Source of the DNA: Mobula hypostoma | Lineage: Eukaryota | Direction of reading: 5' to 3' | Assembly (NCBI RefSeq): GCF_963921235.1 | Contig: NC_086097.1 | Location: forward strand, 7,068,001 to 7,132,000 | Length of the DNA: 64,000 nt | Shown: positions 544-61,979 of the stretch, one piece after another | Position numbering within the stretch: position 1 is the first letter of the stretch | Layout: the number at the start of each line of letters is the position of its first letter | The notes under the pieces: generated by a model | Told to the model about the DNA's origin: nothing | Databases searched by the model: none | What the model saw: the letters and a program-made list of their open reading frames with translations, nothing else | Made by a program: the position numbers and the translations under genes

Positions 544-1176
544 AAACATGAGAAATTCTGTAGATGATAGAAATCCAAAGCAGCATATATCAAATGCCAG
601 AGGAACTCAGCAGGTCAGGCAGCATCTGTGGAAATGAATGAACAGTCAATGTTTCGGGCCGAGGCCATTCATCAAGGATGGAAAGGAAGGGAGAAGAAGC
701 CAGAATAAGATGATAGGTGAAGCCAGGTGAGTGGGACGTCCATGGCCACCTCTTGTGCCAATATAAGGCCATCCTCAGGATGGAGGAGTAACACCTTATA
801 TTTCATCTGAGTAGCCTACAACCTGATGGCATGAATATCAAATTCTCCTTCGGTTAAAAAATATGTCCCCACCCCTTCTCTTCCTCGATTACCACTCTGA
901 CCTTTTACCTCTTCTCACCTGCCTATTACTTCCCTCTCATCTTTCCCTTTCTCTGATGGTCCACTCTTCTTTCCTATTAGATTCCTTCTTCTCCAGCCCT
1001 TGAACTTTCCCATCCAGCTGGCTTCACCTATCACCTTCCAGCTAGCCTCCTTCCCCTCCCACCCATCTTTCCCCTTCCTTCTCAGTCCTGATGAAGGGAC
1101 TCGGCCCGATATGTTGACTGTTTTTTCATTTCAATAGATGCTGCCTAACATGCTGAGTTCCTCCAGCATTTTGTGT
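544..1176 (+). mobile_element. Penelope-like retroelement 3' relic with an inverted 5' arm (fold-back structure)
   Basis: About 785-857 encodes a degenerate EE(Q)HLIF(R)L.SLQPDGMNI.FS, matching the C-terminus of Penelope GIY-YIG ORFs. 590-738 is an inverted copy of the 3' arm at about 1010-1176 (GGAACTCAGCAGGTCAGGCAGCATC / GATGCTGCCTAACATGCTGAGTTCC). Confidence 0.75.
1083..1120 (+). ncRNA. Degenerate minimal type-I hammerhead ribozyme motif (Penelope-associated)
   Basis: CAGTC-CTGATGA-A-GGG-actcgg-CCC-GA(T)A-TGTT-GACTG. Stem I is CAGTC/GACTG, the CUGAUGA core is intact, stem II is GGG/CCC, and GAAA is mutated to GATA. An antisense copy at 643-680 retains GAAAC. Confidence 0.6.
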
Positions 1177-1194
1177 CTGAAGATCTATTCTGGG

Positions 1195-2155
1195 CCCATG
1201 TTTTTGCAATTACAAAGAAGGCTATGTTTCTTGAGGTGTTTGAGGACATTTGGAGCAGATATGTTACCAAAGACTCCAGCAAATTTCTACTTATGTACCA
1301 TGGAGAGCATTCTAACCAGTTGCATCACTGTTATGAGGGGCCACAGCACAAAATCACAAAATGGTGCAGAAAGTTGCAAACCCATCCAGCTTCATCATGG
1401 GCACTAGCCTCCTGCAGCATCAAGGACATGTTCAAAAGACTATGCCTTTAAAAGGACCCTCATCATGCAGGGCATGCCATTTTCTCATTGCTACTATCAA
1501 GCAAGTGGTACAGGAGTCTGAAGACACACACTCAACATTTTACGAGCAGCTTCTTTCCCTCTGCCATCCGATTTCTGAACCAACAATAAATTCATGTACA
1601 CTATTTTTTTGAAAAAAAGAAAGAAAGAAAGAAGGAAAAAAGAACCCCTACTAACTAAAACAAAAAAACTCCTGCTAACAAAAAAAAACTGAAAAAAAAA
1701 CCCATTGGGAGCACAACCCCGGAGCTATACGCCATACAAGCTTCCATAAAAGGAAAACGTCAATCCGCCAACTGAAATCCATTTAAACAAGAATCAGAAG
1801 GAAACTATCTTAATTAATTCAAATCAGCTGTTTTAACACTTTATTTTGTTTCTTCTTATTATTGATATATTGTTTAGCTTTGTTAATCAGTTATTTGGTA
1901 ATTTAATTTCTCATTGTACATGTTGACATGTTGACTTGATTACTTTAATGTATTTTTTTTGTTGATCTTCAACAATAATTAATAAAAAAGATTTAAAAAT
2001 GAAAATGAAATTCATGTGCACTACCTCACTATTTTGATTTCTTTTTTGCTTTACTTGTTTCAGTTAAGTTTTTAGATATATTTTATTGTAATTTATATTT
2101 TTTATTATATATTGCAATGTACTACTGTTGCAAAACAACAAATTTCATGACTGTA
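1195..2155 (+). mobile_element. Old Rex1-clade LINE 3' fragment, interrupted by an L1 insertion
   Basis: Degenerate RLCFLRCLRTFG...FYLCTMESILTSCIT, the Rex1 RT C-terminal region. The 3'UTR ends tattgcaatgtactactg...aatttcatgac. Confidence 0.7.
1604..2007 (+). mobile_element. 5'-truncated, probably 5'-inverted L1 3'UTR insertion with a 16-bp TSD
   Basis: Flanked by AAATTCATGTACACTA (1588-1603) and AAATTCATGTGCACTA (2008-2023). The first half is A-rich, the second half T-rich, ending AATTAATAAAAAAGATT. That end is nearly identical to the 3' end of the L1 at about 53111-53145 (minus). Confidence 0.55.
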
Positions 2156-2156
2156 T

Positions 2157-2648
2157 ACAATATTGTGCAAAAGTCTTAGACCCATATACATAGCTAGTAA
2201 TTGCCACCGTAGAGCAGAGTGAGTTTGTAAATCTGGCGGTAGCAAAGGATGTTGGGAATAGTGGGGGTGGAGCACTATGGAAGGGGTGTAGGACAGGTGG
2301 CAGAGGAAGAGTGCCAGGGGTAGGAGGTGGTGCAGGTGCAGACACACCCAGTCCTAAGACACCAGGCTTGATTCTAACAATTTGTTTACTGATCATTACA
2401 GAATGTCTCCCTGGTGCATCCTACTCCCACCTCTCTCCCTTCTCCTTTTCCAAACATGATTTTCCTCTCCCTACCCCCTTCCCACTCTCAGCCCACAAAA
2501 GAGACCGAGATCAGAATCAGGTTTATGTCATGAGTGTGTTTTTTTTCTTTTGTGGCAGCAGTACACTACAATACATAAAATTACTACAGTAGTGTGCAAA
2601 ATTCTTAGGCACCCTAGCTATACATATTTGCCTAAGACTTGTGTCACC
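2157..2648 (+). mobile_element. Tc1-type MITE, TIR CAGTACTGTGCAAAAGTCTTAGGCAC family
   Basis: Ends and interior match the copies at 28456-29328, 46660-46890 and about 3140-3440 (minus). Confidence 0.6.
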
Positions 2649-3729
2649 TTGGTGATTGTATGTCACCTAGAACATGCCCTCTTCTCAATGCACAGCAGAC
2701 TGAACACACACATTCAACATTTTAGGAACAGCTTCATCCTCTCCACCATTACATTTCTGAATGCACAATGATCCCATATACACTACCTCACGATTTTCTT
2801 TCCAATTTTTTGCTCTTTGCACTACTGAAATATATTTCTTAATGTAATTTATAGTTTTTATCATTATGTATTGCACTATATGCTGCCACAATACAACAAA
2901 TTTCACAACAAACACCACTGAGCTTAAACCTGATTCTGAGTCAAATAGTCAGGCTGGTTTGGTCATTGTATCAGTGTCATACAGCACTGCAGAACAGAAA
3001 CAGGCCCTTCAGCCTATCTAGTCTGAGCCGAACAATAATTCTGCATAGTACTATTGACCTGCACCTGAACCATAACCCTCCTTACCATTGTTGTCCGTGT
3101 ACTTATCCAAATTTCTCTTAAATGGTGAAATCAAGCCTACATGGGAAGAAGGAAAGGAACAGGCGAGAGAGCGGAAAGCACCAGAGAGACATTCTGTAAT
3201 GATCAATGAACCAATTGTTTGGAATCATGTAACCTTAACTGGTGTCTCAGGCCTGGGTGTGTCTGTATGCATGGCACCTCCCTGCCCCTGGCACTCCTTC
3301 TCTGCCACCTGTTCCACACCTCTCTTGCAGCGCCTCATCCTCATCATTCCCACTGTCCTTTGCCCCTGCCAGATTTACAAACTCGCTCTCCACTCCATGT
3401 TGACAAATTCATATATATATACTTATTTTGCACAGTGCTGTTTCCTTGGAGGTCAAGCTCTTTGCAGACAGTTAAGCACATCAGAAGTGGACCTACTGTT
3501 ATAGTTTACAAAATCCTACCTCTAATTTACATGCAAGAATCCACAAGAAGGAAAAGGACAATAATTGAATTAAATTAGGGTGAGTTTTCCTGATCCTTCT
3601 CCAACCCTGGATGGAATCCAATGGGAGTAATTTGAATGAAATTTCACCACTGTGTACCCGGTGGGATCTGTACCCCCACTGCTTCTTCATTCATTCTTTC
3701 AAACAAGGTAAAATTAAAAGCCCAACTCA

Positions 3730-3910
3730 TAAACACAAGAGATTCTGCAGATGCTGGAAATTCAGAGCAACACACACAAAATACTGGAGGAACTCAGCAG
3801 GTCAGGCAGCATCCTGATGGAAGATCTCAGTCTGAACCATTGACTGTGTATTCATTTCCGTAGATGCTGCCTGTCCTACTGAGTTCCTCCAGCATTTTGT
3901 GTGCGTTGCA
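3730..3910. mobile_element. Short Penelope-derived fold-back repeat with a degenerate hammerhead in the loop
   Basis: Arm CAAAATACTGGAGGAACTCAGCAGGTCAGGCAGCATC pairs with GATGCTGCCTGTCCTACTGAGTTCCTCCAGCATTTTG. The loop contains CTGATGGAAGATCTCAGTCTGAACCATTGACTG. Confidence 0.65.
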
Positions 3911-4502
3911 TACAATAAAAAACAATTTATTTTCTGTTAGGTAACAACAGCTGGAGTTAACAGTAGACTTCAGGAAATACTGATAGGAAATTTAATTGCC
4001 AGTGTGACTTGCTAAGTTTTATTTGACCACACTTGGAGTTACCCTGTGAAAAATTCAGTGATGTTCACAATTAATTTTCCTTGTTTAATTATTTTGAGCA
4101 TTTATAATGATCAATTAGGAAGAATGGAAGACTTTAAAGTGTTGACAGGTATATTTATTAAATCTTGGATGGATCCTAATTATAATGTGACTTCAAATAT
4201 ACAAGCAAAATCTAATGAAGAAGATGTGACTGAGTATATGAGGAAATTATTGGAATATTAAATTGTGTTTCTAATACACCGAAAGATTATGTGAAGATGC
4301 TACCTTCAGAAGTAAATTAATTTTCGAAATTGGACGTACAGTAATAACATACTACTAACTTAAATGCCTTTCATCTCAGGATTTGGTTTGAGGCCAACTT
4401 AGGTTCAGAAGATGAAAGTGTTCTCTCTCTGCTGCTAATAATAAATTGGCACTCTTATTCAGGGGCCACAGGGTGGGTTGAGTTCAGGCTGGAAAAACTC
4501 AC

Positions 4503-4655
4503 ACTGATTGAGTAACAGAGCACTTTTTGAGGTTGAAGGTAAAACTCAATGCAGAGGGAACATTACATGAGACACATCCCACAACAGAACTTAAGTTACT
4601 CAAAGTTAACACTGCATAGAGAAGGCAAGAAAATATTCCATTTCCTGAAATTATC
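4503..4655 (-). other. Candidate exon (153 nt, symmetric phase 2-2)
   Basis: Acceptor gcttttcttttccag|G at 4655 and donor AGT|GTGAGT at 4503, with 50 stop-free codons in one frame. No homology recognised. Confidence 0.2.
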
Positions 4656-5293
4656 CTGGAAAAGAAAAGCTATTAGAGGATATTGCGACTTTTGGGGCAA
4701 GAGCAGTATAATAGAAAGACCTTTCATTTTGATTTGATGACAGCAAAACAGTTTTGTATCTATACTTGGTGAAATAACTTAAATAAAATGAGATTACTCA
4801 TTTCAGGTCATCAAAGTTACAAAAGTTACCCCAAATTACCGTGGCACAGTAGAGCAGTGGTTATAGTGCCAGCGAGCCAGGCTCCATTACCGCTGCTGCC
4901 AGTACGGAATTTGTACGGGCTCGTTCGGCTGGAAGGACCTCTTTACCGTGCTGTATCTCTAAATAAATAAATACTCAGTCTGAGTCCAGTTATTAGAAGC
5001 CATTAGCCCAATTAAGCACAAATTGGCACCAAATCAGCACTTTCGTCGGGAAATTTCACAGGCACCAGTGTAGGGGTAGGGGTGGAAATGTCATCTGGGC
5101 ATTAGAAAAGCCTTCTATCAAGAATGAGATTAAGGAGTATGTTTGATGCAGGGTAAACTAATGAATCGCCAGTCACTCAAAGCATAGAACTCCAGTACCC
5201 ATCACCACATACTCACACCGCACTGTGTCCGAATTTTTGATAAATAAAAGGTGACAGAGAGGAAATGAAGAGTCAGGAACAAAGAAGTTTAGT

Positions 5294-5947
5294 AGTCATA
5301 GTCATAGTCATAATCGTACTTTATTAATCCAGGGGGAGATTGGTTTTCGTTACAGTTGCTCCAAAAATAATAAATAGTAATAGAACCATAAATAGTTAAA
5401 TAGTAATATGTAAATTATGCCAGTAAATTATGAAATAAGTCCAGGACCAGCCTATTGGCTCAGGGTGTCTGACCCTCCAAGGGAGGAGTTGTAAAGTTTG
5501 ATGGCCACAGGCAGGAATGACTTCCTATGACGCTCTGTGCTGCATCTCGATGGAATGAGTCTCTGGCTGAATGTACTCCTGTGCCCAACCAGTACATTAT
5601 GTAGTGGATGGGAGACATTGACCAGGATGGCATGCAACTTAGACAGCATCCTGTTTTCAGACACCACCGTGAGAGAGTCCAGTTCCATCCCCATAACATC
5701 ACTGGCCTTACGAATGAGTTTGTTGATTCTGTTGGTGTCTGCCACCCTCAGCCTGCTGCCCCAACACACAACAGCAAACATGATAGCACTGGCCACCACA
5801 GACTAGTAGAACATACTCAGCATCGTCCGGCAGATGTTAAAGGGCCACGGTCTCCTCAGGAAATAGAGACAGCTCTGGCCCTTCTTGTAAACAGCCTCAG
5901 TGTTCTTTGACCAGTCCAGTTTATTGTCAATTCGTATCCCCAGGTAC
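5294..5947 (-). mobile_element. Young Rex1-clade LINE, 5'-truncated, with (ATGACT)n tail
   Basis: ORF 5452-5799 VVASAIMFAVVCWGS...PVAIKLYNSSLGGSDTLSQ, preceded by YLGIRIDNKL. Near-identical to the copies at 31234, 34997 and 38596. Confidence 0.9.
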
Positions 5948-6811
5948 AAATACACTATTACATCAATGAAATCGTTAGTGACTACAGTGAGATATACAAT
6001 ATTATGAGGGGCATAAACAGGGTAGATTCAAGTGGACTTTGTGCTATATTAGATATTAAAAAATGGAACACATACCATCACCGAGAGCATCTTCACATCA
6101 GCCAGTACTGTCTGGTTTGGTGCATCATCCTCTTGCAAAGGTCACTGGCTGCCATCTGGCATTACCACAAGACTTATATGTGTCCAAGACAGAGAAATGG
6201 CCAGGAAAAAATTATCGTGGATACTACCCACTTTGCAAACTGCCTTTTTCAAAAGGTCCCTTCGGGAAAGTGCTATAGGGCTATTAAACAAAATTTCACA
6301 CCATCTTAAAAGTATCTTCCCCAAGCAATTAATCAGATCAACCATTCTAGTTATTGAATTGAATTGACTTTACACCACCCCATCTACTACCCCCCACCAC
6401 TGCACTGTACTGTAATCACTTTAAGTCGGTACTTCGTAAATACATGAGAATATTTATCTATTTATGCATTTTTTTTTCTATATCCATACTTCTAACTTTA
6501 TTTTGTATTAATTTTTATTCTTTTTGATTGTTGAATGTTGTTTTAGTTGCATGTCACAGCAGAGAAAGTTTCTAATACATGCAAATGGATCTGGCCAATA
6601 AAAGATAATCCTTGACACATTTAAAACAAAGATTTTCCAGAGACACCTGAGTGGGATTTTTTTTATATCTCAATGGTTGGAATCTGGAATTCTTTAAACT
6701 GATGGTGGAGGAAGAGATTCTCACAATGGGAGAGCACTTGAATTACCAAGGTATAGGACGGGAACAGACCAAGTGCCAGCGTATAGGGATTCGTATAGAT
6801 GCCTAATCTAT

Positions 6812-7220
6812 TCTCTTCCCATCCTTACCATTCTGCATTAGCTTCCCCTATCTTTTAGAGTTGATTTTAAAGTTCTCTCACTTGTTTTTAAAGCTCTCAA
6901 TGGTCTGGGACAAGAATACATCATAGCTCTCAGGCCTTCATCTGCCGGTCCCTTAAATTTAAACAATCTTCCTCAAAAGATAATTAGCACATCAGCTTTT
7001 CTGAACTGCGCTCCTAAACAGTGGAACTAAATACCTAAAACTTTAAGGGATGCAGATTGTCCACTTTAAAGGACAGCTCAAAACCTACAGTATTTATTTA
7101 AACTTGCTTTTAACTGACATCTTTTTGTCTTTTATTTTCATGTTTGCACCTTATCCCATTGTAAAACACTTTGAACTACATCGTCTGTACAGAACGTGTG
7201 CTAAAAATAAGTTATTATTC
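6812..7220 (+). mobile_element. L2-clade LINE 3' fragment (a further tail copy lies at about 18130-18280, minus)
   Basis: Degenerate LH.LP..FRVDFKVL.LVFKALNGL...AF...AP..WN...FK..LKTY, typical of the L2 ORF2 C-terminus. Confidence 0.7.
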
Positions 7221-8134
7221 TAGTATTTTTATTTCAGATCTCAAGCTGGTAAAACCTGAGGTACGGGCATAGCCAAGCACAATCATTTCTCAATTGTAAG
7301 AACTTTCAGACTATTCTAGTGGTGTTTAGCGTTGTGGCTCTCTAAAGATTTACACAAATATTGCTGTGTAGGCCAAATTATTTAATGCTATTGTGTAGTA
7401 ACTTTGAGATGCTACCAATTGTAGATATTACTATTGGTGCAATGTATACCCTGTTCATGTTCCATCATTATTATTATTATTGTTGTTGTTATTATTAATA
7501 GCTGGGTGGATGAGGCCTGTTTCTGTGGTGACTGAATAACACACTGAAGAGATAACTCAGAGATAGGAGAGCAGCTGATGGAAACTGACTTTGACAGTAA
7601 CAGTGGCATTACAATCATTTGCTCATATTGACTTATGACTTGGAATAAGGCCATTCAGCCAAACAAGTCTAGGCTGGCTCCCAGAGGATACACATAGATC
7701 TCATTCCACTCCTATTTTCCAGTAACCTATTTTCTCACACATGTCCACCAACTCCCTTTGGGTTTCCTGCCAACCACTTGCACAACAGCTGCTATCAATG
7801 GCATGGTGAATTAACTCATTATAAGAGTGATTGGCAGGAAACTCAGGGAGATTTGATGGGTTTATGAGAGAAAATAGCCTACTATGGCTGGTAGGAAACC
7901 AATGCACCGAGGGAACTCATGTGGTGACAGAAAAAGTACATAAATTCTACCTAGACAGCACCTGACGTTAGGATTGAACCACTGAAGCTGTGAGGGAGCA
8001 ACACTTTGCAGTGCCAAAGTGCCACCCTATGCCAGCTGCCATTCATTCTGCCTGATAGCTTTTGTCGATGTGTTAGGTTTTACAGTAAATTCAGTATTTC
8101 TGTGGTCTGGGATTTGTGAGGCCTTTCAAGTCTA

Positions 8135-8806
8135 AGTATAGTGAAGAAGATTGTAGTGGTTTGATCGTTACTTTATTAGTTACAGTAGTGGAACTCGGCA
8201 TGGTCTTCCACTGCTATAGCCTGTCCACTTCAAGGTTCTACATGTTGTCTGTTCAGAGATGCTCTTCTGCACACCACTGTTGTAACGTGAGATTATCTGA
8301 GTTACTCTTGCCTTCTTGTCAACTTGAATCACTCTGCTAATTCTCCTCTGAATTCTCTCATTAATAAGGCATTTTAGCCTGCAGTATACTATAGTGTCAG
8401 CTTTTAGGAGAGAAAACTTGACAGACATACTGGTCAGTACCGAATTACATGCAGTCCTAAACTTCGGGGTGTGGAGGAGAAACGGTAAGGTATGCAAACA
8501 GTTAAGAACATCAGAAAGTATACACAACAGAGCCCACAGAACTGCCACTCACTGGACTTTGTTTCACTTTTTTTTTGCATAATTCTCTGTAAACTAGCGC
8601 AGGGGATCCCAACCTTTTTTTATGCCATCATTCCATGGTCAAAGTCACTTAGATCACATTTTTTACCCATTCTGTCATTTGATCTGAACAACAACTGAAC
8701 CTCTTGACATGTCTGCATGCTTTTATGCACTGAGTTGTTGATACATGATTGGCTGATTAGATACTTGCAATCATACAGGTGTACCAAGTAAAGTGGCCAC
8801 TCAGTG
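8135..8806 (-). mobile_element. Non-autonomous Tc1/mariner derivative (TIR CACT[C/G]AGTGGCCACTTTA...) containing small internal insertions
   Basis: TIR at about 8780-8806 flanked by TA. Relic transposase start MGKKCDLSDFD and relic DKKARVTQI...YNSGVQKSISE.TT.RTL. Same family as 23109-24088. Confidence 0.7.
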
Positions 8807-9085
8807 TATGTATATATCAATCCTGTTCGCAACTGAATTGATACCATCTGTATTATGTACAAGGTATTTCGAATTATAATTTATTCTCTTTCAATTTAAC
8901 TCCTACTCCCGCATTACTCTAAACACCCATCAGCAAGGACGCAGCGTGACATCCACACCAGGACCACCAGACTCAATACACTTATTTTCCCTAAGCAGAA
9001 AAGCTGATCGACACCTCCACCCACTAACCCACCCCTCCACATCCCCAATCATCACTCCATTATAATTTCATATCAGTCACTCCTG

Positions 9086-13113: not shown

Positions 13114-14362
13114 TTGTAAGTAGATAGCGACCAGAATTCGTGCTCTTTGCTTATTTACTTTTCCTCTCCTATTTACTGTTCGCCTACCAGACACTCGGGA
13201 GCTGTAATAAAGACATTTCTTTCAGCCTTTACTTCCCCTGGATCTAAAAGGCTTAACCGTCGTCAAAAAAAAAACGCAACCGCGAAAAAAGGACAGATTT
13301 TTTTAATTGAAACTTTTTTTTAATCGGATCGATTTGAGGACTGTTTTACAGCGGACAATTCAGTAAACAATAAACAACTCTGATAGTTTTAAGATTCCCT
13401 CTACTTTGTAGACCTGCTCTATGTAAAAACACTTATCAAATTTATTTCGGATGACAGGCTTGTCTAAGCAGCTTTTACTTGTATTGTTCTGTTGTCGAGT
13501 GTCTTCGCCGCCGAAAGGTAGTTTTGATTTGCTTTTCGTGGCGGATTTATACGGGGTTAAGCATTGAAATCTGAATTAAGGGAAAACGAGGTTTCTCAGG
13601 TGAAACTCAACCATCCTGTTAAAGGGTCTCGGCCCGTTTCAGTTGACTGTTTATTCATTTCCCTAGATGCCGCCTGACCCGTGAGCTCCTCTCGCATTTT
13701 GTACGTGTTTCTCAGTTGAAAACTGGGGGTTCAGGAGGGAGCGCCGCGTTGGGTAAGTATCTGTGAAAACTCCCTCTCTTTCTTTTTCCAACACGTGAGT
13801 GAAGTATCCCAACCGATAAACACCATGTATATGTTTGCCACGGTCGCGATTGCAGATCGTGAAAGCGATACTAAAGAATTGGAATAGATGGCCATTGTGA
13901 AAATCTTTCGGCGCGGCCGAAATGGAGGGCATCGATAAGCAGAGAGGCAATTAAGAGAGAAAACATCCACGAAAAGATAGGGCGCTTAAGAAAACAGCGA
14001 AGGAGCTAATTGTCAACACGTTTGGCTAGAATTCATGAAACACTGAAGGAGCAGTTAAAACATGTAGCGTAGTTGGGAAAAAATCAGCGAAATCGTGCGC
14101 TTAATCTTGTGATCCGAAAGTGCAAATAAACCCGAAAGTTTGATTAGAAAAGTGTACAGAACGCGTTCGCCTTCCCTGCGTTTAAAGTGAACGTAGTTTA
14201 ACAACCAGCTGCCCGATTTCAGAGTAACTTGGCTTAATACTTTTTTTCTTATGAATGTAGGTTACGCTCGCAGTTTCATCCACAAAGACTGGTAATCCAA
14301 GACCCCCCTCTGCCTTTTTAACGAATTTACAACTTGGGACCATTTACGAGACCAACACCTAC

Positions 14363-14480: not shown

Positions 14481-15919
14481 CTGAAATATGAAAACGCCCA
14501 CTTGCTGATCTCACCGGCTCCTGAACGTAATTTAACTCTTCCCGGCCATTCGCTGAGCGCGGCGTGTTTAGATTTTGGTGCTGAATTCGCAGGTGGAGTC
14601 GCGTTACTGCGTTGAGAATGTTTTAGTTCGATGTTAAAAAAAAAGACAGCGTTGTACCTTAAAGCACGTAAGGAGAAATCGCCTATGTTAGAATAATCAT
14701 CACAAATCCCCTTTCTCTCCCTCTGGTCAGTAAACATTGCACAATAGTCCTGATGAAAGTGCTCGGCTCCAACCATCAAATAGTCATTCTTTTCCATAGA
14801 TGCTGTTTGACCTGCTGAGTTCCTCCAGCATTTTGTGTGTACTACAAGAATTTGTAAGTGCGCGTTGGCAGCTTACAAGCCGGGTCATTTAAAGCAACTT
14901 TAAACATTCGACTACTGCCTTAGCATTGTGAGAGTGTGTTCGCTTTGGTGGGTGGGGGGTGGCAGGCGCGAAGCATTCTTCAACTCTGTTCAGACTCTGG
15001 AGGAGAGGTGCAGGAAAGAGTGGGGCTGCTGTATCCCAGGGAGAGAAATTCTCACCTGATGTGAATGAAAGGTGACACGCTCGCTCAATTGGACTGACGC
15101 CAGATGTCAAGCCAAGCATGTTTGGCACTTAGTTGACTCTCTTTGCTTCTTAAAAGTACTTCAGTGGCTGTTAACCACTTCGGCATTACGCGAACACACG
15201 CCTTTCTTTTTCCTGCGCCTCGCTACTTGATCTCACTTTTTTTTTGGTTTCAGTGTTTTGTCAGTTTCCTTTTTGGAAGCCAGTGGTTCATTCTGCTAAC
15301 TTGGTTCTTTTTTTCGTACCGACAAAAAGGAACAGCTGTTAATCTGCTTGGAAATCAACAGATTAACAACTACATTAAAATAACACTCTCACAAAAAAAA
15401 ACTGTGTGAGGGAAGAGCTCTACCAGAGAAAAATAAATCCCATAATATCCCTGGAATGGCCTCAAGCCATTTTATGGAAGTAGCCGTTTCTACAGCACGG
15501 AAATAAGCCCTTGACTCATCTCGTCTGTGCCAAATATTAATCAGCCTACTCCCATTGACCTGCACCCGGACCTCAAACCCCACCCATCCATGTACCTATC
15601 TAGACTTCTCTTCAAACCCTCATCCACCACTCGCGCTGGAAGCTGGTTCCACAATCTCACCATGCTCCGAGTGAAAAAGTTCCCCCTCATATTTCACTTA
15701 AACAAACCCTTAACCTACAACCTCTGTCAGTCCCATCCAACCTCAGCGGAAAAAGCCTGCTTGCACTTACCCTATCTATACCCCTCGTAATGTTGTGTAC
15801 CTCCGTCAAATCTCCCCTCTTTTTGTGTCAGTCTGTCTAGATGCACTGACCATCAACGGAACATCAGCAGCCAACAGTGGAACATCCGTCCTGATACAGA
15901 GTTTCGGCCTGAAATACGT

Positions 15920-16160
15920 GGGTGGCATGGTAGGGTAGTGGTTAGCACAATGCTTTACAGTGCAGGTGATCCAGTTCAATTCCTGGCCTTGCCACTTTCT
16001 CCCCGTTATCATGTGGACGGGTTTCCGGGTGCTCGGCTTTCCTCCCATATTCCAAAGGCGGACCAGTTAGTAGGTTAGTTGTGTACTGTAAGTCCTCCCA
16101 CCAGGTGCAGTTCGGAGGTCCAGAAGGGCCTATTGCAGCTCAATACGTAGTTAAATAAAT
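15920..16160 (+). mobile_element. tRNA-headed V-domain SINE (HE1-like); other copies at about 17400-17580, 20937-21210, 51975-52130 (minus), 60958-61220 and 61320-61608
   Basis: A-box-like GGTAGNGTAGTGG and B-box-like GTTCAATTCC. V-domain TTCTCCCCGT...GGGTTTCC...TTTCCTCCCA and an AATAAAT tail. Confidence 0.8.
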
Positions 16161-18373
16161 GTCTACTGTTTCTTCCACAGATGCTGCTCGAGCCATGGAG
16201 TTCCTCCAGATTCCAGTGTCGGGCATCTCGAATGGGTCAAGAGTGGCGCATGAGTAATAAAGGAGGTGGAATTGCTACCGCTCTGATGTCACACATAATA
16301 CCTGACTTCAGGTGAGAGGTCTTTGGTAGATGCCAGAAAACATGAAGTGATATACTTTGAACGCATTTCTACTTGTGTTTTTCTGCTGTATTTTCATTGT
16401 TCAATGCACACGCTGGATTTCTCTACGCACTGAATCTGGATGTAGTCCACATTATTCCGCGTCTGGTAATCATGAGGTAAGGCGTATCATCCTGGAAATG
16501 CTCAGAATGCCAGTTAGCATCTGCCCAATGAGAAGCAGAGTTAATGTTTCAAACTATGTTTTGTATGAACTTGGAAAAAATAAAGTAATCTTAAAGTTGC
16601 AAAGACTGTTGGAGGCTAGGTCAAGAAATCCAGTAACTAAGACTACAAGACACAAAGTTCAAAGTAAATTTTATTATCAGTATACAGTACATAATGTCAG
16701 CACATACAACTCTGAGATACATTTTGCAAATCTGTAGAATAATGGGGTCAATGAAAGATCAAGTGAAGAGCTGAAGACAACAAATGTGCAATGCAAATAT
16801 AAATAAATAGTAATAAATAACAAGAGCATGAAATAACAAGATAAAGAGTCCTTAAAATGAGATCTTTGGCATGGGAACATCTCAATGGATGGGCAAGTGA
16901 GTGTAGTTATCCCCTTTTGTTCAAGAGCTTGATGGTCGAGGGGTTGTAACCATTCTTGAACCTGTGGTGCAAGTCCTGAGGGTCGTGTGCCTTCTACCTG
17001 ATAGCAGCAGCAAGAAAAATGCATGGCCTAGACCGTGAGGAACTCTGACGATGGATGCTGCTTTCCTACGACAGCGTTTCACGTAGATGTGTTTAATGAT
17101 TGTACTGGGTTGTATCCATTACATTCTGTGGGATTTTTCTATTCACAGCCATTGGTGTTTCCATAGCAGGCTGTAATGCAGCCAGTCAGTACACCCTCCA
17201 CCACACATCTATAGAAGTTTGTCAAAGTTCCTGATGTCATGCCTTATCTCTGCAGACAGGAGCAGAACTAGGCCACTCTGCCCATTGAGTCTGCTCTGCT
17301 ATTCCAGCATAGTTGATTCATTAACACTTTCAACACAATTTCCTTGCCTTCTTTCAATAACTTTTGATTAAGTTCAAATGGAAGCATCATCATCGTCATT
17401 TACTGTGTGGGTTTCTTCCAGGTGCTCCAGTTTCCTCCCACAGTCCAAAGATGTACGTTTGCTAGGTTAATAGGGCATTGTAAATTGTCCTGTAATTCGG
17501 CTAAGAATAAATCAGGGGATTTCTGGGTGGTGTGGCTTGAAGGGCTGTAAGTACCTATTCCATGCTGTTTCTTAATAAATTTTTAAACATGTGCCCTGTC
17601 ATATTTACGTGGATGATCATGATCTTGCCCATGACCATCATTGTTCTTGGAAAATTTTTCTACAGAAGTGGTTTGCCATTGCTATCTTCTGGGCAGTGTC
17701 TTTACAAGCCAGGTGGCCCTAGGTTTTATCAATACTCTTCAGAGATTTTCTGCCAGGTGTCACTGGTCACATAACCAGGATTTGTGATGTACACCGGCTG
17801 CTCATACGACCGTCCACCATCTGCTCCCATGGCTTCACGTGACCCTGATCAGGGTGTGAGGCTAAGCAGATGCTACGCCTTGCCCAAGGGTGATCTGCAG
17901 GTTAGCAGAGGGAAGGAATACCTTACACTTTATTTGGTAGAGACATATCTCCACTCCGCCACCCAAATGGAAGACATGAGTGATAAGCTGACAAAAGAAA
18001 GATAGAACTACGTGAAAGAGAATGGTACAGATTCAGTGATTAATAAAAAGTAACTTTGGAGGAGATGTATGTATTTTGTATATGAAAATGCTGAGAAACT
18101 GAAATTAAAACAGTAAATAAAATTATAATAATATTAAATTTATAGAGCACTTTTCATACAGATTATGTAGTTCAAAGTGCTTTACAATGGGATAAAGTTA
18201 AAACATGAAAATAAAAGACAGAAATATATTAGTCAAAAGGGAGGTTAAATAAATAAGTTTTGAGCTGGCATTTAAAAGTGCTGGAAACACTCAGCAGGTC
18301 AGACCTCATTCTCGAAAAGAAGAACAGAGTTATCATTTCATGCTGATGACCTTTCATCCAGCAGGGTGGCATG

Positions 18374-24088: not shown

Positions 24089-25304
24089 TATATATACAGT
24101 AAACAAGAACATTAAGATTATAAGCAAGAATAGGACATCTGATAATTGAGACTGGTCCATCAACCATTAACATCATGGCTGATTTTCTACCCCAATTCCG
24201 TTTTCCTGCACAATCCATTAATATCCATTATTCTATCAATTTCGATCTTGAATGAACCCAGTGATTGAGCAGCCTTCCAGGTTAAAGAACCCAAATACTA
24301 CTGCCTGCTGATTGAAGAAATTGCTTTTCATCTCTGTCTGAAATGAGCTGCCTCTTATATATCTCCCCAGGAAAAAGCATCTTCCTCACACTAACTTTAT
24401 CGAGTCCTGTAGCAATTTTGCAAGTTTTAATAAGATCTCCTCTCATTCCATTGAGTGCAGACAATTTAATCCTATTTGCCATGACAGTAATCAGTCTAGT
24501 AATTCTTTCCTTGCACTTTTTAAATGGCAAAGGCCTGATTTTAATAGTATTACATGGCTCTTTAAGTACATTGGACATCTTGACAACTCATAGTGTACAA
24601 TCTAACTTTACAGGTCTTCAAAGAAAATCAGTTTAAAAAACTACAATGACATGCACTTTGGGATCATTAGCAAAATTGTTTGAGTGCTCTCTGGGAAATG
24701 AACTTCCAGTTTTCCGACATCATTTGTTATTAACTGCTAGTGAAATGGAAACTCCTGAAATTCAGCTGCAGTGCCATCACCAAGCTGTGCAATCTGAAGT
24801 TCAAAATTGAAAGTAAATTTATTACTAATATACATACATGTCACTATATACTGTACAACCCTAGGTTTGTTTTCATTTTCTTGCAGGCATCCACAGTTAA
24901 TATAAGAAACACAATTAACAGGGGTTCCTGACCTTTTATAGGCCATGGACCCCTACAATTATCCAAGGAGTTCGTGGACCCCAAGAGGAACCCTAATAGG
25001 ACGGATAACAACCAATGTGCAAAAACTATGCAAATACAAAACAAGGGAAGAAACGAAGTAATAGTAATAAATAAATAGCAATAAATATCGAGAAAAATTG
25101 TTTTTGAGTGCTAGAAAATGAGTCCATAGGTTCTGGAAACAGTTCAGTGATGGGGTGAGTGAAGTTGAGTGAAGTTATCCCCTCTTGTTCGAGAGCCTGA
25201 TGGTTGAGGGTTAAAAACTGTTCCTGAACCTGGTGGTGTAGGTCCTGAGGCTCCTGTACCTCATTCCTGATGACAGCAGTGAGAAGAGAGCATAGCCTGG
25301 GTAA

Positions 25305-25400
25305 CATACAAAAATTGCTGGAGGAGCTCAGCGGGCCAGGCAGCATCAATGGGAAAAATTACGGTTGACGTTTCAAGCCGAGACCCTTCGGCACGACTGG
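25305..25400 (-). mobile_element. Penelope-derived arm with degenerate hammerhead
   Basis: Minus strand reads CAGTC-GTGCCGA-AGGGTCTCGGCTT-GAAACGTC-AACCG, followed by GATGCTGCCTGG...GAGCTCCTCCAGC. Confidence 0.6.
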
Positions 25401-25669
25401 AGAGAAAAATCCTGGGTGGTGGTTGTCCTTGATGATGAATGCTGCTTTCCTGCAACTGTGTTCCGTGTAGATGTGTTCTATAGTGGGTAGGGTTTTACAG
25501 GTGATGGACTGGGCTGCATCCACTGCTTCAATGTCACTGACGGTAACAAGTGCAAGGAGAAAGCTCACTTTTAAATAAAAATTTACAGGTGAAGACAGGA
25601 ATATACACATACAATTACAGTAAGAGCTAATATTTAATTTAAAAACTTTAATTAAAGAAAGCAATACCC

Positions 25670-25805
25670 TGCCCCATTCCTTTCTAATCCTGATGAAGGA
25701 TCTCGACCTAAAATGTCGATTGTTTATTCCCTGACCGTAGAAGCTGCTTGACTTGCTGAGTTCCTCCAGCATTTTGAGTGTGCTGCTCTGTATTTCCAGC
25801 ATCCA
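25670..25805 (+). mobile_element. Penelope-derived arm with degenerate hammerhead
   Basis: TAATC-CTGATGA-AGGATCTCGACCT-AAAATGTC-GATTG, followed by GCTGAGTTCCTCCAGCATTTTG. Confidence 0.6.
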
Positions 25806-28455
25806 TGGAATGTCTTCTGCAAATAATATTCTAATACAGTTTTAAAGGAATTAAAACTGAAACATAATCTTCGCAGAGCCAGAGAGTTTGTTAAGCAGTG
25901 CACAACATTACTACACTGCCCCATACAACAAAGTGGAATAGTTTGAGGGCAGTTTTCAGTGAGTACAGATCATGCATTCCTGAAGTTGTTGTCAATTCTC
26001 TGATTTCAGGAGATTACACTTGAGAGGGGTGAAAACAGCACGCCCTGTGGAAGAGCAGAGAATTAGAGTAACTTCTGGATTTTCATGTTTGACCACATGT
26101 GTAAATTCCCAAGGTTGTTCTCAGTTTCAGGTGTAATAGCCGCAGGCAGTTTCATTGGTAACATCTAGGCTGATTAATGGTTCATGTCAGGTGGAGAGGG
26201 GAGAGACAGTGTAAGTTAATTTGTTAAGGTGATCTCACCTGTACTCTGATGAATACATCAATTAGAGAGTTACTGCAGAGTAAAGAATTCTTACCCCTTG
26301 GCAATAAAGTGAACGAATAGACCAAGATCAACTAAGTTTGTGATATTAATTAAACTTTTTTAATACAATTGATAATGGCTGGGGTCACCCGTCTTGAAAA
26401 GACACTGCCCAGAAGAAGACAATGGCAAACTGCTCCTGTAGAAAAAATTGCCAAGAACAAACATGGTCATGGAACGACCATGATCGCCCTCATCATATGA
26501 CATGGCACATAATGATAATGATGGGTGTGATAAGATGGACCCTTGATCTCACAATCCAACTTGTTACAAGATCATAAGATATAGCACAGAATTAGGTGAT
26601 GGCACATAGGTTTATTTTTTAAGGTTTATTCTTGATATCCTAGCAGCACTTTATAAAAATATGCTGATTTATCAGATAAATAATATTGAGGTTGAGAGAG
26701 CTCAGAGATTCAAGTTACTAGTTGTGAAGTTACTGTAGCTTGTCCTGGTCCAACCACGTAGATGTTATATCCAAGAAGCTCACCAACTCTTCTCCATCCT
26801 CAGAAGGCTAAAGAAATTTGGCATATCCCCATCGACCCTTACTAATTTTTATCAGTGTATTGTAAAACGATTTTGCCCACTTAATGGGTTGGTAAAGCAA
26901 CTGTTCTCACATGACTGCAAGAAACTGCAGAGAGCTGTGGACACAGGTCAGCACATCAGACCAGCCTCTCCTCCGTAGTCTCTGTCTGTGCTTCTTGTTG
27001 AATCAGTAAAGCAGCCAGCATATTCAAAGTCCCGTCCACCCGGGATGTTCTCTCTTCTCCTCGCTCCCATTCGAAGATACAACAGCTTGAAATCACTTAC
27101 CATCAGTCTCAAGGACAGCTTCTACCCCACTATGGTAAGACTATTAAATAGTTCCCTAGTACAATAAATTGGACTTTTGATCTCACGATCTACCTGGTTC
27201 TGATCTTGCACCTTATTGTTTACCTGCACTGCACTTTCTATGAAACTGTTATATTTTATTTCATACTGTTATTGTTTTACTGTGATTTACATCAATGCAC
27301 GGTGCAATGATCTGCTCTGTATGAATAGGATTCAAGGTGATTCATGTGAAAATAATAAACCAATTCCAATAGCAAAACATAAATTTTCGTCTCCGTCAGG
27401 GGTTCCCAACCTGGGGTCCATGGATCCCTTGGTTAATGGTGATGAAAAAGGTTGGGAACACCAATCTCCATCAACCATGATGGAATGGCAGAACAGACTC
27501 AATGGGCCGAGTGGCCTGAAATCTGCTCCTATGTTTAATAGTCTTATGATCTTATTATTTGCAAAGAAAGTTAATACACTGTTATCGTTTAAAGTTATGC
27601 ACTGACACAATAGGTAAGGGCATTCCTGAAATAAAAGGTTGGCAAATTCAGCACATAGACTCTCCGGGGTGGCAAGGTGGGAATATATCTCTACCAAAGG
27701 AGGTGTAATGTGCTCCTTCCCTCTGCTAGCCTAAAGGTGACCCTTGGCCAAGGTGTAATACCTGCTTAAACCCCCAGTCAGGGTCACATGAAGCCATGGG
27801 AGCAGATGGATGGTTGTATGAGCAGATGGTGCATATCACAAGTCCTGGTTATGTGACACTGTCTGTGCATAATGTGATTGACAGGAAATGATAAAGTAGT
27901 GGTGTTTGAGGGTGTTTGTTGGTGGATTAGTGGGTGGAGGTGTTGATCATTCTTGCTGCTTGGGGAAAGTAACTGTTTTTGAGACTGGTGGTCCTTGGGT
28001 GGATGTTACATAGTCTCCTCCCTGATGGGACTGGGACAAACAGTCTATGATCAGGATGGGTGGGATCCTTCATGATATTGCGAGCCTTTTTTCTCTGGCA
28101 TCTTTCTTTATATATGTCCTTGTGATTGTACTGCAAGTTCTGTTGACTTGGCTTCATGATCAAATAGCCGCCTACTTCATTGTCCTTGAAGTATGATGAC
28201 GAGAGCAATGGATGATAGTTTCTGAAAGTACACCAAAAGTAATTCAGTTCAGCAAACTGTTAATTGAAAAAAGAAGTTTCATAAAACACTTGCATAAATC
28301 AGTCAGTGTATTTTTCAAAACACTTCTCAATACAGTTTGTGAGTTAGGAAAGTCTGAATAATTACTTTTATTATATGGTGCTTGAAGATTATCTAGCTGG
28401 AAGCTATGCTACTTAATAATTATGAAGGTTCATGATTGCTTAAGTATTCAAGATA

Positions 28456-40465: not shown

Positions 40466-40585
40466 CCCTCCTGATGAAGGGTCTCAGCATGAAACATCTA
40501 CTGTTCACTCTTTTCCATAGATGCTGCCTGGCCTGCTGAGTTAGTCCAGCATTTTGTGTGCTCAGCATCTGTAGATTTTCTCTTG
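40466..40585 (+). mobile_element. Penelope-derived arm with the hammerhead core intact
   Basis: CTGATGA-AGGGTCTCAGCAT-GAAACATC-TACTG, then GATGCTGCCTGGCCTGCTGAGTT. Confidence 0.6.
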
Positions 40586-44854: not shown

Positions 44855-45184
44855 TACATATACTTTGATACTGAATGTAATTTGAACGTTGAACATTGAA
44901 CTTTGAAGTTGACTTGAAGCAATAATTAAGCATGTTGTTTCAAAATGTCTGATAATTAGAATCAGGTTTAGTACCTCTGACATATGTATATCATGAAATT
45001 TAATGTTTTGTAGCAGCAGCATATTGCAATACATAATGATAAAAAATATCAATTTCAGTAACAAATATATATAAAAAGAAAATCAAATTTGTATTTAATG
45101 TATTTCTTATATATACTGTATGCATACATAATACACACACATACACAGTGTATATAAATATATATATATAAATATATTCCTCCA

Positions 45185-46600: not shown

Positions 46601-47029
46601 GTATATATATATATACACACATCTAGATGTATGTATGTACCTATAACAATATATATATACAGTATTGTGCAAAAGTCTTAGGCACACATATGTATAGCTG
46701 GGGTACCTAACAGGTTTACATGGGACTGTATTTGTCAATGTGGAACAGAGGGCGAGTTTGTAAATCTGGTCGGAGCAAGTGGTGAGGTTATTGGAAATGA
46801 TGAGGGTGTTGCACTGAGGGTGGAACTGTTGGGAGAGAAGGATTGCTGGGGTGGGGGTGGGGGAGGGCGGAGAAAGGAGGCATGGGTGAAACAATGAAAC
46901 AATGAGAGGGCATGTTCAAAATGACAACTGAATTACAATCACTTTTAGTTCTTATGTGTTTACAATATTCTGTCAAAATGTACAGCAGCATTTTGCAAGT
47001 CCTGTGATCCTGCAACAACAATTGAGACA

Positions 47030-52924: not shown

Positions 52925-53110
52925 GAACACACACAGAATGCTGGAGGAACTCAGCTGGTCAGAAAGCATCCACAGAACTAAACAAGTACCCGACGCTTTG
53001 GGCCAAGACTCTTCTCCGCCAGTCCTGAAGAAGCATCTTAGCTTGAAATGTCAACTGGTTGTTTATTTCTGTGGATGCTGCCTGACTTACTGAGTTCCTC
53101 CAGCATTTTG
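52925..53110. mobile_element. Penelope-derived fold-back repeat with back-to-back hammerhead relics (another arm at 60426-60565)
   Basis: Inverted arms. CAGTC-CTGAAGA-AGCATCTTAGCTT-GAAATGTC-AACTG at 53020-53058. Confidence 0.65.
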
Positions 53111-53503
53111 TTCTTTCTTTCTTTTCCAATCTTTTTATTAATTTTCAAAATTATAAACATAACAACAATATTAATGAACAGAAATTGGGATTACATTATT
53201 AATAATTGACATTGCAAATATAGCATTGGTAATAATACAGATGTATAAAGTTTCCCAAACTCTAAATATAATTAAACATGGTAAAGGGATAAATGAGGAA
53301 AAATCTAAAAAAAACCAAATTAGAAAAGAAAAAAAATATTAATTAACTAAGCGATATTAAGCTAAACTAAATAAAACTAAAAACAAAACTATAGAAAAAA
53401 AAGACAGACTAACATATTACATTGGATAGAATCAGTAATGTCGTTAACTCCACTCCTCTATCCATGTATCTTAAGTTTAAAAAAAGGATTCGATAAGGTC
53501 AAA

Positions 53504-60182: not shown

Positions 60183-61254
60183 TTCCAGCAACTTAAAATC
60201 AAATTTGTAGAAAAAACTGTATATGAGCCCTTTAGTGTAGGTTTGAACAAAATGAATAAGGATGGTTATGGAGATACCTTGGATGGTTGTAAAATGAGAA
60301 GAAATTACTAGTGTACCTCGGAATGATTTGACCATTTTAGCATGAGTGGATTGATGAACCGAGAACCAACACTGGTCAGAAATCACAGGAGAAATTAATA
60401 AAAAGAAACTTATGCCATTTTGAAAATGAAGTCCTGAAGAAGGATCTCAGCCCAAAATTTAGACTGATTGTTCATTTCCATGGATTCTGCCAGACCTGCT
60501 GAGTTCCTCCAGCATTTTGTATGTGTTGCTCTGGATTAACAGCATCTGCAGAATCTCTTGTGTTTAGTGAATGAGGATTACAACAGTGAATAGTTTTCAA
60601 CAATACTTCCTTGATCACAGACTTGCATGGGATGTCCTGAAGCCGAGAATGGCTCAGAATAATGTAAGTTCTTTCCTCACCTTGTCAAAACTCATTTCAA
60701 CACTGACACCTGAATAATAACTATTCAGAAGTGTTTCTGTGAGCAGTCTATAAGCGTCATAGAGATAAGTTCCCTTAACACAAGAGATTACTGGTATTGA
60801 GCCTCACTGTGCATATTGTATTACCACATCAAACCCTATTTTAAAAAATATTAAACTCAAAATTCTACTTAATTTATTTTTAAAGGAGTTTTTGTATCAT
60901 TGCTAAAGAACACCTGATGTACCAGATATCTTTTTAATCCAAGTCTGCATCTCATTAGGGGTGGCATGGTAGTGTAACTCGATTACAGTATAGGCAGCCC
61001 GGGTTCAACCCTTGGCCTTATCTGTCAGGAGTTTGTTCGTTCTTCTCATGACCGTGTGGGGTTCCTCCGAGTGCTCTGGTTTCCTCCCACATTCCAAAAA
61101 TGCCTGGGTTAGTAGGTTAATTCGTCACAACGGTGTAATTGGGCAGCGCTGGCTCATTTGGGTCAGTAAGGACTGTTACTGTGTTGTATCCACAAATGAA
61201 CAAACCAATAAATAAATAAATGTAATTTTAAAAATTCATACGCACGTGCGCGCG

Positions 61255-61255
61255 T

Positions 61256-61298
<43 letters not shown>
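61255..61298. repeat. Compound (CA)n(TA)n microsatellite
   Basis: Directly visible. Confidence 0.9.
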
Positions 61299-61979
61299 GG
61301 TAGATACATAAATAATAGATGGCATGGTAGTGTAGTGGTTAGCACAATGCTTCACAGTGCAGGCATCCTGGGTTCAATTCCTGCCACTGCCTGTATGGAG
61401 TTTGTACGTTCTCTCCACGACTGTGTGGATTTCCTCCTGGTGCTCCGGTTTCTTCCCGCAATCAAAAGTCATACCGGTTTGTAGGTTCATTGGTAATTGT
61501 AATTGTCCCACGATTCTTTTTTGGATTAAATCAGGGGATTGCTGGGCGGTGTGGATCAAAGGGACAGAAGGGTTTATTCCACGCTGTATTTCAATATATT
61601 AATAAATTATGTACTTACTGCCCATTAGGATGCTGGTATTTAGGGTAGCAATGAAGCTCCTCCATCCCTGTCTGCCCTTGGCCATCTTCTAAAGTCCCAC
61701 CTGATGTTTCAAGGATACCATCACGCTCAGATGTCGAAGGACTCTTCATTGCTGTTTGTTGTTTCTGTAACAGTTTTGTTTCACCTGTTAACCCTGAGCT
61801 GAACCCTTGAATCTGGAGGACCCTTTGAGCCATTGACCTATTTGGCATAGGTGACCCTACCAAGAGCCAAAAGCTCTGATTCCAGCCAATAGAGTTCACA
61901 GGGTCATTGAGGAATGCAAGCGTCCAAACCACAGCATGGTTTTGGTCCACCTGGAGGAGAGAGAGAGAGAGAGATAAGT

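Follow-up and report, generated by a model that had tools for sequence, protein, structure and literature searches.

A probable dead Penelope-like insertion with a predicted minimal hammerhead motif, and its very abundant relatives, in Mobula hypostoma

The closest described systems are Penelope-like elements (PLEs), and our account of them follows excerpts of the cited papers. The minimal hammerheads of PLE pseudo-LTRs (pLTRs) have an extra base between positions 9 and 10.1 and a palindrome at 15.2–16.2, and occur as opposite-strand pairs 100–700 bp apart (PMC4209133); Cervera and De la Pena list the extra base and the palindrome as unforced features of the minimal motif (PMC4209133). PLE hammerheads cleave poorly in vitro and need dimers or protein (PMC4209133, PMC11167929, PMC6765202), dimer cleavage having been described by Lunse, Weinberg and Breaker, as cited in PMC6765202. 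PLE insertions show heavy 5′ truncation, partial tandems that make pLTRs and, often, an adjacent inverted 5′-truncated copy, with a 30–40-bp tail at one end (PMC8557442). In the anole PLE, the encoded protein cuts both strands of the target and extends them, and the tail is bracketed by two internal reverse-transcription start sites (PMC11167929). Our literature search on hammerheads or PLEs in cartilaginous fishes found nothing specific to them, and the species lists in supplements may already include this lineage.

The element described here is a very abundant member of this known PLE kind and not a new class, and the fold-back and pLTR traits seen are already published PLE traits. In particular, as in the PLE pLTR minimal hammerheads (Cervera and De la Pena 2014, PMC4209133), the motif lies in both flanking repeats of an element encoding a reverse transcriptase (RT) and GIY-YIG; its boxes are CUGANGA and GAAA, a single unpaired base separates A9 from 10.1, helix I is 4–5 bp long, a true helix III is missing and the insert between A15.1 and U16.1 is palindromic; and it occurs as thousands of dispersed single motifs and as pairs on opposite strands. 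The copies share 5′ truncation, partial-tandem pLTRs, an adjacent inverted 5′-truncated copy, a 30–40-bp tail at one end and an ORF start in the repeat/tail region with endonuclease-positive PLE units (Craig, Yushenova, Rodriguez and Arkhipova 2021, PMC8557442; anole Poseidon PAc, PMC11167929). With animal non-LTR retrozymes (PMC7229834; Li, Clavereau and Pollet 2026 preprint) they share a type-I hammerhead, a palindromic loop 3 and an origin in PLE pLTRs; unlike those retrozymes, whose tandem hammerhead repeats give rise to circular RNAs, they are dispersed, 5′-truncated and mostly arranged as head-to-head pairs. Differences from the published minimal hammerheads include a helix II of 4 bp, in contrast to the 7–8 bp of the Schistosoma families (PMC4209133); a G10.1–U11.1 pair in the youngest lineage, unlike the conserved G10.1–C11.1 stressed in the same paper; and numbers far larger than the 4,000–9,000 quoted there for coelacanth and Xenopus.

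The insertion at 533–1187 and the other copies in the window

The DNA analysed is a stretch of 64,000 nt (the window). Positions 545–1175 most probably represent one dead insertion of an endonuclease-positive PLE, with the 37-nt motif as the pLTR's minimal type-I hammerhead (probability about 0.87). Borders at 544–1176, as placed by an earlier note on this DNA, are accurate: a 12-nt direct repeat, TCTGAAGATCTA, is present at 533–544 and at 1176–1187, a length found in 0 of 200 random control comparisons. The insertion would comprise a forward 5′-truncated copy (ORF end, 3′ UTR, hammerhead and short tail) positioned head-to-head with a shorter inverted copy (long tail, hammerhead and a bit of UTR). 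Its features are:

533–544, no strand: left target-site duplication (TSD), TCTGAAGATCTA, a 12-nt match to 1176–1187
547–735, minus strand: inverted 5′-truncated copy, with long tail, tail core, hammerhead relic at about 640–680 and about 55 nt of 3′ UTR
738–857, plus strand: C-terminal relic of the PLE ORF, amino acids 1004–1040 of 1043, with one in-frame stop and the natural stop at 855–857
858–1082, plus strand: C/T-rich 3′ UTR of the forward copy, of an older "B" lineage, resembling the upstream regions of loci L006 and L013
1083–1120, plus strand: hammerhead relic of the forward copy, which fails the strict descriptor
1121–1175, plus strand: linker and short tail form (the reverse-transcription start region in PLEs); nhmmer match 1083–1185, model positions 4–104
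1176–1187, no strand: right target-site duplication, matching 533–544

The inverted copy is matched by nhmmer from 676 to 548 (model positions 8–133, E = 1.7e-24), with UTR homology further upstream. The relic at 738–848 aligns by blastx with the ORF of a full-length copy, L041, at 65% identity across 37 amino acids (E = 1e-12). The earlier note had read this segment as a GIY-YIG C-terminal relic; it is the end of the PLE ORF, sited downstream of the GIY-YIG core, and is not the core itself. In the forward hammerhead relic, helix I pairs 1083–1087 with 1116–1120; CUGAUGA occupies 1088–1094, the extra A is at 1095, and helix II spans 1096–1107. GAAA has decayed to GATA at 1108–1111, loop 3 and U16.1 occupy 1112–1114, and H17 is U at 1115. 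Just to the right of the insertion, window positions 1138–1451 contain open frames of 89–100 amino acids that resemble another decayed repeat.

At all ten places in the window where the motif had been listed earlier, a recognisable copy is present, each followed by about 90 nt of common tail. An nhmmer profile derived from 8 intact genomic copies identifies 14 window copies: the ten listed, 3734–3817(−), 52925–53014(−), and two weak matches at 16157–16212(+) and 18275–18358(−). When at most 3 mismatches are allowed, the core pattern has 5 matches in the window, where 100 shuffles predict 0.07; it has 0 exact matches. As the earlier note had also observed, none is intact: 0 of the 14 copies satisfy the strict minimal-hammerhead descriptor, and the damage consists chiefly of CpG transitions and decay at C11.1/G12, at the CG of loop 3 and at C17/G1.1. 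The window copies are mutated and inert. The copy at 25685 does carry the AATC/GATT pair in stem I that had been taken as preserved pairing; this is a single dead copy, and the 39-copy alignment lacks an excess of two-sided changes. Outside 533–1187, the main copies are arranged as follows:

3734–3918: tails-out fold-back, minus arm 3734–3817 and plus arm 3811–3918 (nhmmer and neighbour-pair analysis)
13613–13714, plus strand: solo copy with its 5′ end close to the 5′ border of the hammerhead (nhmmer)
14745–14850, plus strand: solo copy with its 5′ end close to the 5′ border of the hammerhead (nhmmer)
25300–25815: tails-out pair, minus arm 25300–25398 and plus arm 25685–25815, separated by a gap of 287 nt (nhmmer)
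40468–40581, plus strand: solo copy with long tail (nhmmer)
52925–53111: tails-out fold-back, minus arm 52925–53014 and plus arm 53018–53111 (nhmmer)
60430–60562, plus strand: solo copy with long tail (nhmmer)

The window also contains two weak tRNA-like matches, at 15924–15994 and 61321–61392 (24.7 and 21.8 bits, under the 29-bit threshold), which may be the heads of tRNA-derived SINEs. Low mir-297/mir-466 scores at 45097–45166, 46601–46662 and 61223–61293 correspond to (TG)n/(TA)n-like simple repeats and not to miRNA genes.

Full-length elements and genome-wide abundance

A 290-aa frame that matches GIY-YIG weakly is found upstream of one intact motif. A genome search with this frame returned 234,228 first-look candidates, and several of the 135 scored matches fall within open frames of 1043 amino acids. 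Two such loci, L041 and L042, reveal the full unit: a direct repeat, the ORF, and the repeat again, the two repeats being at least 710 nt long and set 3517 nt apart. Within each repeat, the end of the ORF is followed by about 300 nt of C/T-rich UTR and then by the hammerhead and tail. In L041, the direct repeats are at 1486–2197 and 5003–5710, and motifs at 2089–2218 and 5602–5714 stand on either side of the 1043-aa frame at 2181–5309; L042 is arranged alike. The link to Penelope made in the earlier note is thereby upheld, with the hammerhead in both flanking repeats of full-length RT + GIY-YIG elements. In every copy about 90 nt separate the motif from the 3′ end, and full-length elements carry it in each of their flanking repeats.

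The 1043-aa ORF matches RVT_1 at amino acids 582–697 (E = 6e-5; 23.2 bits, short of the Pfam cut-off of 29.6) and GIY-YIG at amino acids 946–1002 (E = 2e-3; 18.7 bits, short of the cut-off of 22.6). An RT followed by a C-terminal GIY-YIG fits an endonuclease-positive PLE in order and spacing, with both domain scores below cut-off. The closest ESM-Atlas clusters are eukaryotic RVT_1/GIY-YIG proteins (score 0.97–0.98), and a PDB sequence search with the ORF gave 0 matches. The PAc ORF starts inside the hammerhead (PMC11167929), whereas here the frame opens about 55–60 nt downstream of the cleavage site. The 1043-aa frames open inside the long tail, the first ATG being codon 2 in one copy and codon 28 in the other (L041:2181–2260; L042, minus strand).

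Two copies are internally rearranged. At L004:1349–1500, the RT–EN linker region of the ORF is joined directly to a CTGATGA box, apparently because about 900 nt have been deleted from inside this one copy. At L014:6091–6205, the 3′ UTR is joined straight to loop 2 by a short internal deletion that removes the 5′ strand of helix I and the CUGANGA box.

This PLE family with its hammerhead motif is extremely abundant and was amplified recently. In the 3.48-Gb assembly, the 27-nt core with at most 1 mismatch occurs 41,963 times (20,805 + 21,158). The exact 37-mer with C at N7 and U at 11.1 occurs 32,520 times, the C7/C11.1 form 4,745 times and the U7/C11.1 form 835 times; the reversed-pattern control is 0 in every case. 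An unselected sample of 254 kb, comprising the window and 19 stretches of 10 kb not chosen for the motif, contains 68 profile copies, and the hammerhead + tail piece makes up 2.7% of its bases. Extrapolation from this small sample gives a genome total of about 0.9 million copies, about 10^5 of them descriptor-intact (7 of 68). Contigs under four organism codes match the hammerhead and tail at a similarity of at least 85%, and the loose ends of these contigs cluster at L041 positions 2092 and 2128, which bound the 37-nt motif. For annotation, one element explains a very common repeat; it also accounts for many short inverted repeats that an annotator might take for MITEs, hairpin RNA genes or a new class of retroposon.

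Inverted pairs and their mode of insertion

Among 27 neighbour pairs less than 1 kb apart, 19 are (−,+) with tails out, 4 are (+,−), 2 are (−,−) and 2 are (+,+). Pairs at most 50 nt apart are (−,+) in 10 of 10 cases, with the 5′ ends facing, and among the first 100 exact copies listed the same orientation holds for 9 of 10 close pairs. Of the 19 tails-out pairs, 13 combine a long tail with a short one. The position of the arm junction varies from locus to locus in every fold-back inspected. Flanking TSDs, sought for 16 pairs, are 12–14 nt long in 3 (including 533–544/1176–1187), 8–9 nt long in 3, and no better than control in 10. Copy lengths form a continuum from less than 100 nt to the full 3517-nt (3.5-kb) unit.

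Each fold-back is a single insertion made anew and not a member of a self-copying family, because the junctions differ, TSDs flank whole pairs, and lengths form a continuum. By analogy with published PLE biochemistry, the PLE protein would nick both target strands and prime reverse transcription on each; starting at one of two tail sites, this would yield tails-out inverted pairs with variable 5′ truncation, the tail being long on one side and short on the opposite one. We reject an origin of the fold-backs by snap-back self-priming at a single fixed palindrome, because junction positions are not common between loci.

The earlier note had suggested that the short fold-backs may be a distinct non-autonomous retroposon family, its RNA processed by its own hammerhead before retroposition, and this suggestion fares badly. 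It would accommodate the great excess of short copies over long ones (41 of 68 start within the 133-nt hammerhead + tail model or at its edge), the derivation of animal retrozymes from PLE pLTRs, as summarised in a preprint (bioRxiv 10.64898/2026.07.22.740005), and a possible discrete 5′ end at model positions 9–13, where 7 of 68 copies begin. Against it, every fold-back inspected has a junction of its own, a single TSD surrounds the whole pair wherever one is visible, and the length continuum reaches the full element; a fold-back transcript would moreover lock the hammerhead in a long perfect hairpin with its own complement, 1 copy in 68 begins at the predicted cleavage site, and inverted copies are a published PLE habit. 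We consider a separate family very improbable. Same-strand arrangements, which tandem retrozymes would produce, account for 4 of 27 close pairs, and the 254 kb contain no stretch of at least three same-strand copies in tandem; a tandem-retrozyme reading is rejected on these grounds. The inverted arms between direct repeats at 533–544 and 1176–1187 also resemble a DNA transposon or MITE with terminal inverted repeats and a TSD, in which the hammerhead-like word would have arisen by chance. The arms, however, are unequal and end at different internal points at each locus, solo one-armed copies are common (30 of 68 lie outside tails-out pairs), and each arm corresponds to the 3′ end of a unit that encodes an RT; we reject this scarcely credible reading.

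Conservation and predicted activity of the hammerhead motif

The minimal type-I anatomy given in the earlier note is borne out by the intact copies. They begin with the first strand of helix I (4–5 bp), followed by CUGAYGA, which fits the CUGANGA consensus, and by one more A beyond A9. Helix II, 4 bp long and capped by a tetraloop, leads to GAAA; next come a palindromic CG flanked by A15.1 and U16.1, a U and then C or U (completing GUC/GUU), and finally the second strand of helix I. Model column 15 is A in 45 of 46 copies, and loop 3 is ACGU in intact copies, palindromic at 15.2–16.2, which would permit a dimeric helix III. The conserved core (C3 U4 G5 A6 N7 G8 A9 / G12 A13 A14 / H17), with helices I and II in the type-I order, is present in genomic copies: the strict descriptor is satisfied by 7 of 68 unselected copies and by 0 in reversed sequence; all 7 belong to the PLE-tail family, with no other, unrelated hammerhead family found by the descriptor in 254 kb. 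In 39 aligned copies, 79.5% of helix cells are paired, against 16–44% with the partners slid. Judged from the sequence, homology of the motif to the PLE hammerhead is near certain.

Representatives of three lineages differ within the 37 nt at N7, two loop-2 bases, 11.1 (C/U) and H17 (C/U) only, and their upstream UTRs are barely alignable. The stems are invariant among these representatives except for C/U at 11.1, both of which pair with G. Among core columns, N7 alone has three states that are common (T 24, C 15, A 5), and column 11.1 is T in 31 copies and C in 24, with C11.1 in the older lineages. The U11.1 37-mer outnumbers its C11.1 counterpart 6.9-fold (32,520 vs 4,745), and the young G–U lineage retains every one of the 11 invariant core bases. 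C at N7 together with U at 11.1, the latter giving a G–U closing pair in helix II, is found in 17 of 17 motifs beside ORF-bearing copies (L030–L042; for example L041:2089–2128 and 5602–5641). Outside CpG sites, conservation is about 0.9 in the hammerhead columns and about 0.7 in the following linker. Conservation of the tail equals that of the hammerhead, and conservation alone therefore does not single out catalysis.

Both checks that the earlier note had named for the hammerhead fold came out negative. Rfam gave no hammerhead family at the gathering threshold or at E up to 10 in the window, in 8 loci with intact cores and in 121 nt around one intact copy, where the matches were chance-level miRNA/snoRNA ones; the missing score is explained by the missing helix III and so is not decisive. 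The Rfam Hammerhead_1 family (RF00163) has the same catalytic core and topology (open helix I), and differs from the motif in that helix III here is one A–U pair around a 2-nt loop and an extra A follows A9. Covariation in stems I and II scored 0.189 in 39 copies, against a shuffled mean of 0.215, with none above the shuffles (484 of 500 shuffles at least as high; two-sided cells 3 vs 4.9 expected). The copies are dead and closely related, and because dead copies decay neutrally, the missing covariation is likewise not decisive.

Nearest-neighbour folding gives a monomer MFE of −11.0/−11.1 kcal/mol, against −7.0/−8.9 kcal/mol for the hammerhead-compatible fold. A double-hammerhead fold can be drawn (−11.5/−16.7) and is not the optimum: two monomers reach −22, and the dimer MFE is about −30. 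In the predicted best monomer fold (L041:2092–2128), G5–G8 pair with the CGUC that spans the cleavage site, and helix I is extended into a long hairpin; this hairpin could be an off-state. Ribozyme activity is inferred: in multi-unit transcripts the hammerhead would cleave weakly after GUC/GUU, as a dimer or with protein help. We give about even odds that self-cleavage is meaningful in vivo. The 68 copies show no pile-up of 5′ ends at the predicted cleavage site.

The hammerhead-like block might instead be kept as a 3′-terminal RNA module recognised by the RT/EN, or be carried as a passenger, with self-cleavage dispensable or lost in the amplifying lineage. This possibility, which we hold to be rather doubtful, would account for the equal conservation of the neighbouring tail, for the G10.1–U11.1 state of the amplifying lineage (all 17 motifs, and the great majority among exact 37-mers), and for predicted folds that disfavour the active form. 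It also draws on excerpts of two published reports: catalytic mutants of the anole PLE left in vitro insertion unchanged, and no RNA-seq reads start or end at the cleavage site (PMC11167929); Naiad PLEs proliferate well without hammerheads, and "HHRs may simply parasitize PLEs" (PMC8557442). However, differences between lineages within the 37 nt are limited to rule-free or pairing-preserving positions, a pattern predicted by selection on the ribozyme fold, and the young lineage keeps 11 of 11 invariant core bases, with the G–U at 10.1–11.1 still able to pair. A narrower proposal, that the massive amplification of the G–U lineage does not depend on efficient self-cleavage and that the block serves another role (RT recognition or a folding switch), we regard as unlikely. 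Reading the motif as the minimal hammerhead of the PLE pLTR, we find the system mildly unusual in its copy number, in the success of the G–U variant and in a small excess of 5′ ends at G5.

The genome provides a very large natural set of minimal hammerheads, including an old G–C form and a young, far more successful G–U form. This set could test whether self-cleavage matters for PLE spread, a question left open in the excerpted discussions of PMC11167929 and PMC8557442. If the G–U variant cleaves poorly, the genome would be a natural experiment with, by extrapolation, about 10^5 descriptor-intact copies in a total of 10^6 motif copies.

In statistics that rest on the 68 copies, 5′ ends fall at model positions 9–13, around G5 of CUGANGA, in 7 of 68 copies, against about 1.6 expected with even truncation (a post hoc comparison). 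Examples of starts near G5 are L012:4523–4620(−), L016:1472–1565(−), L017:5686–5781(−) and window 18275–18358(−). The excess could mark a discrete RNA end or an RT stop tied to the alternative fold.
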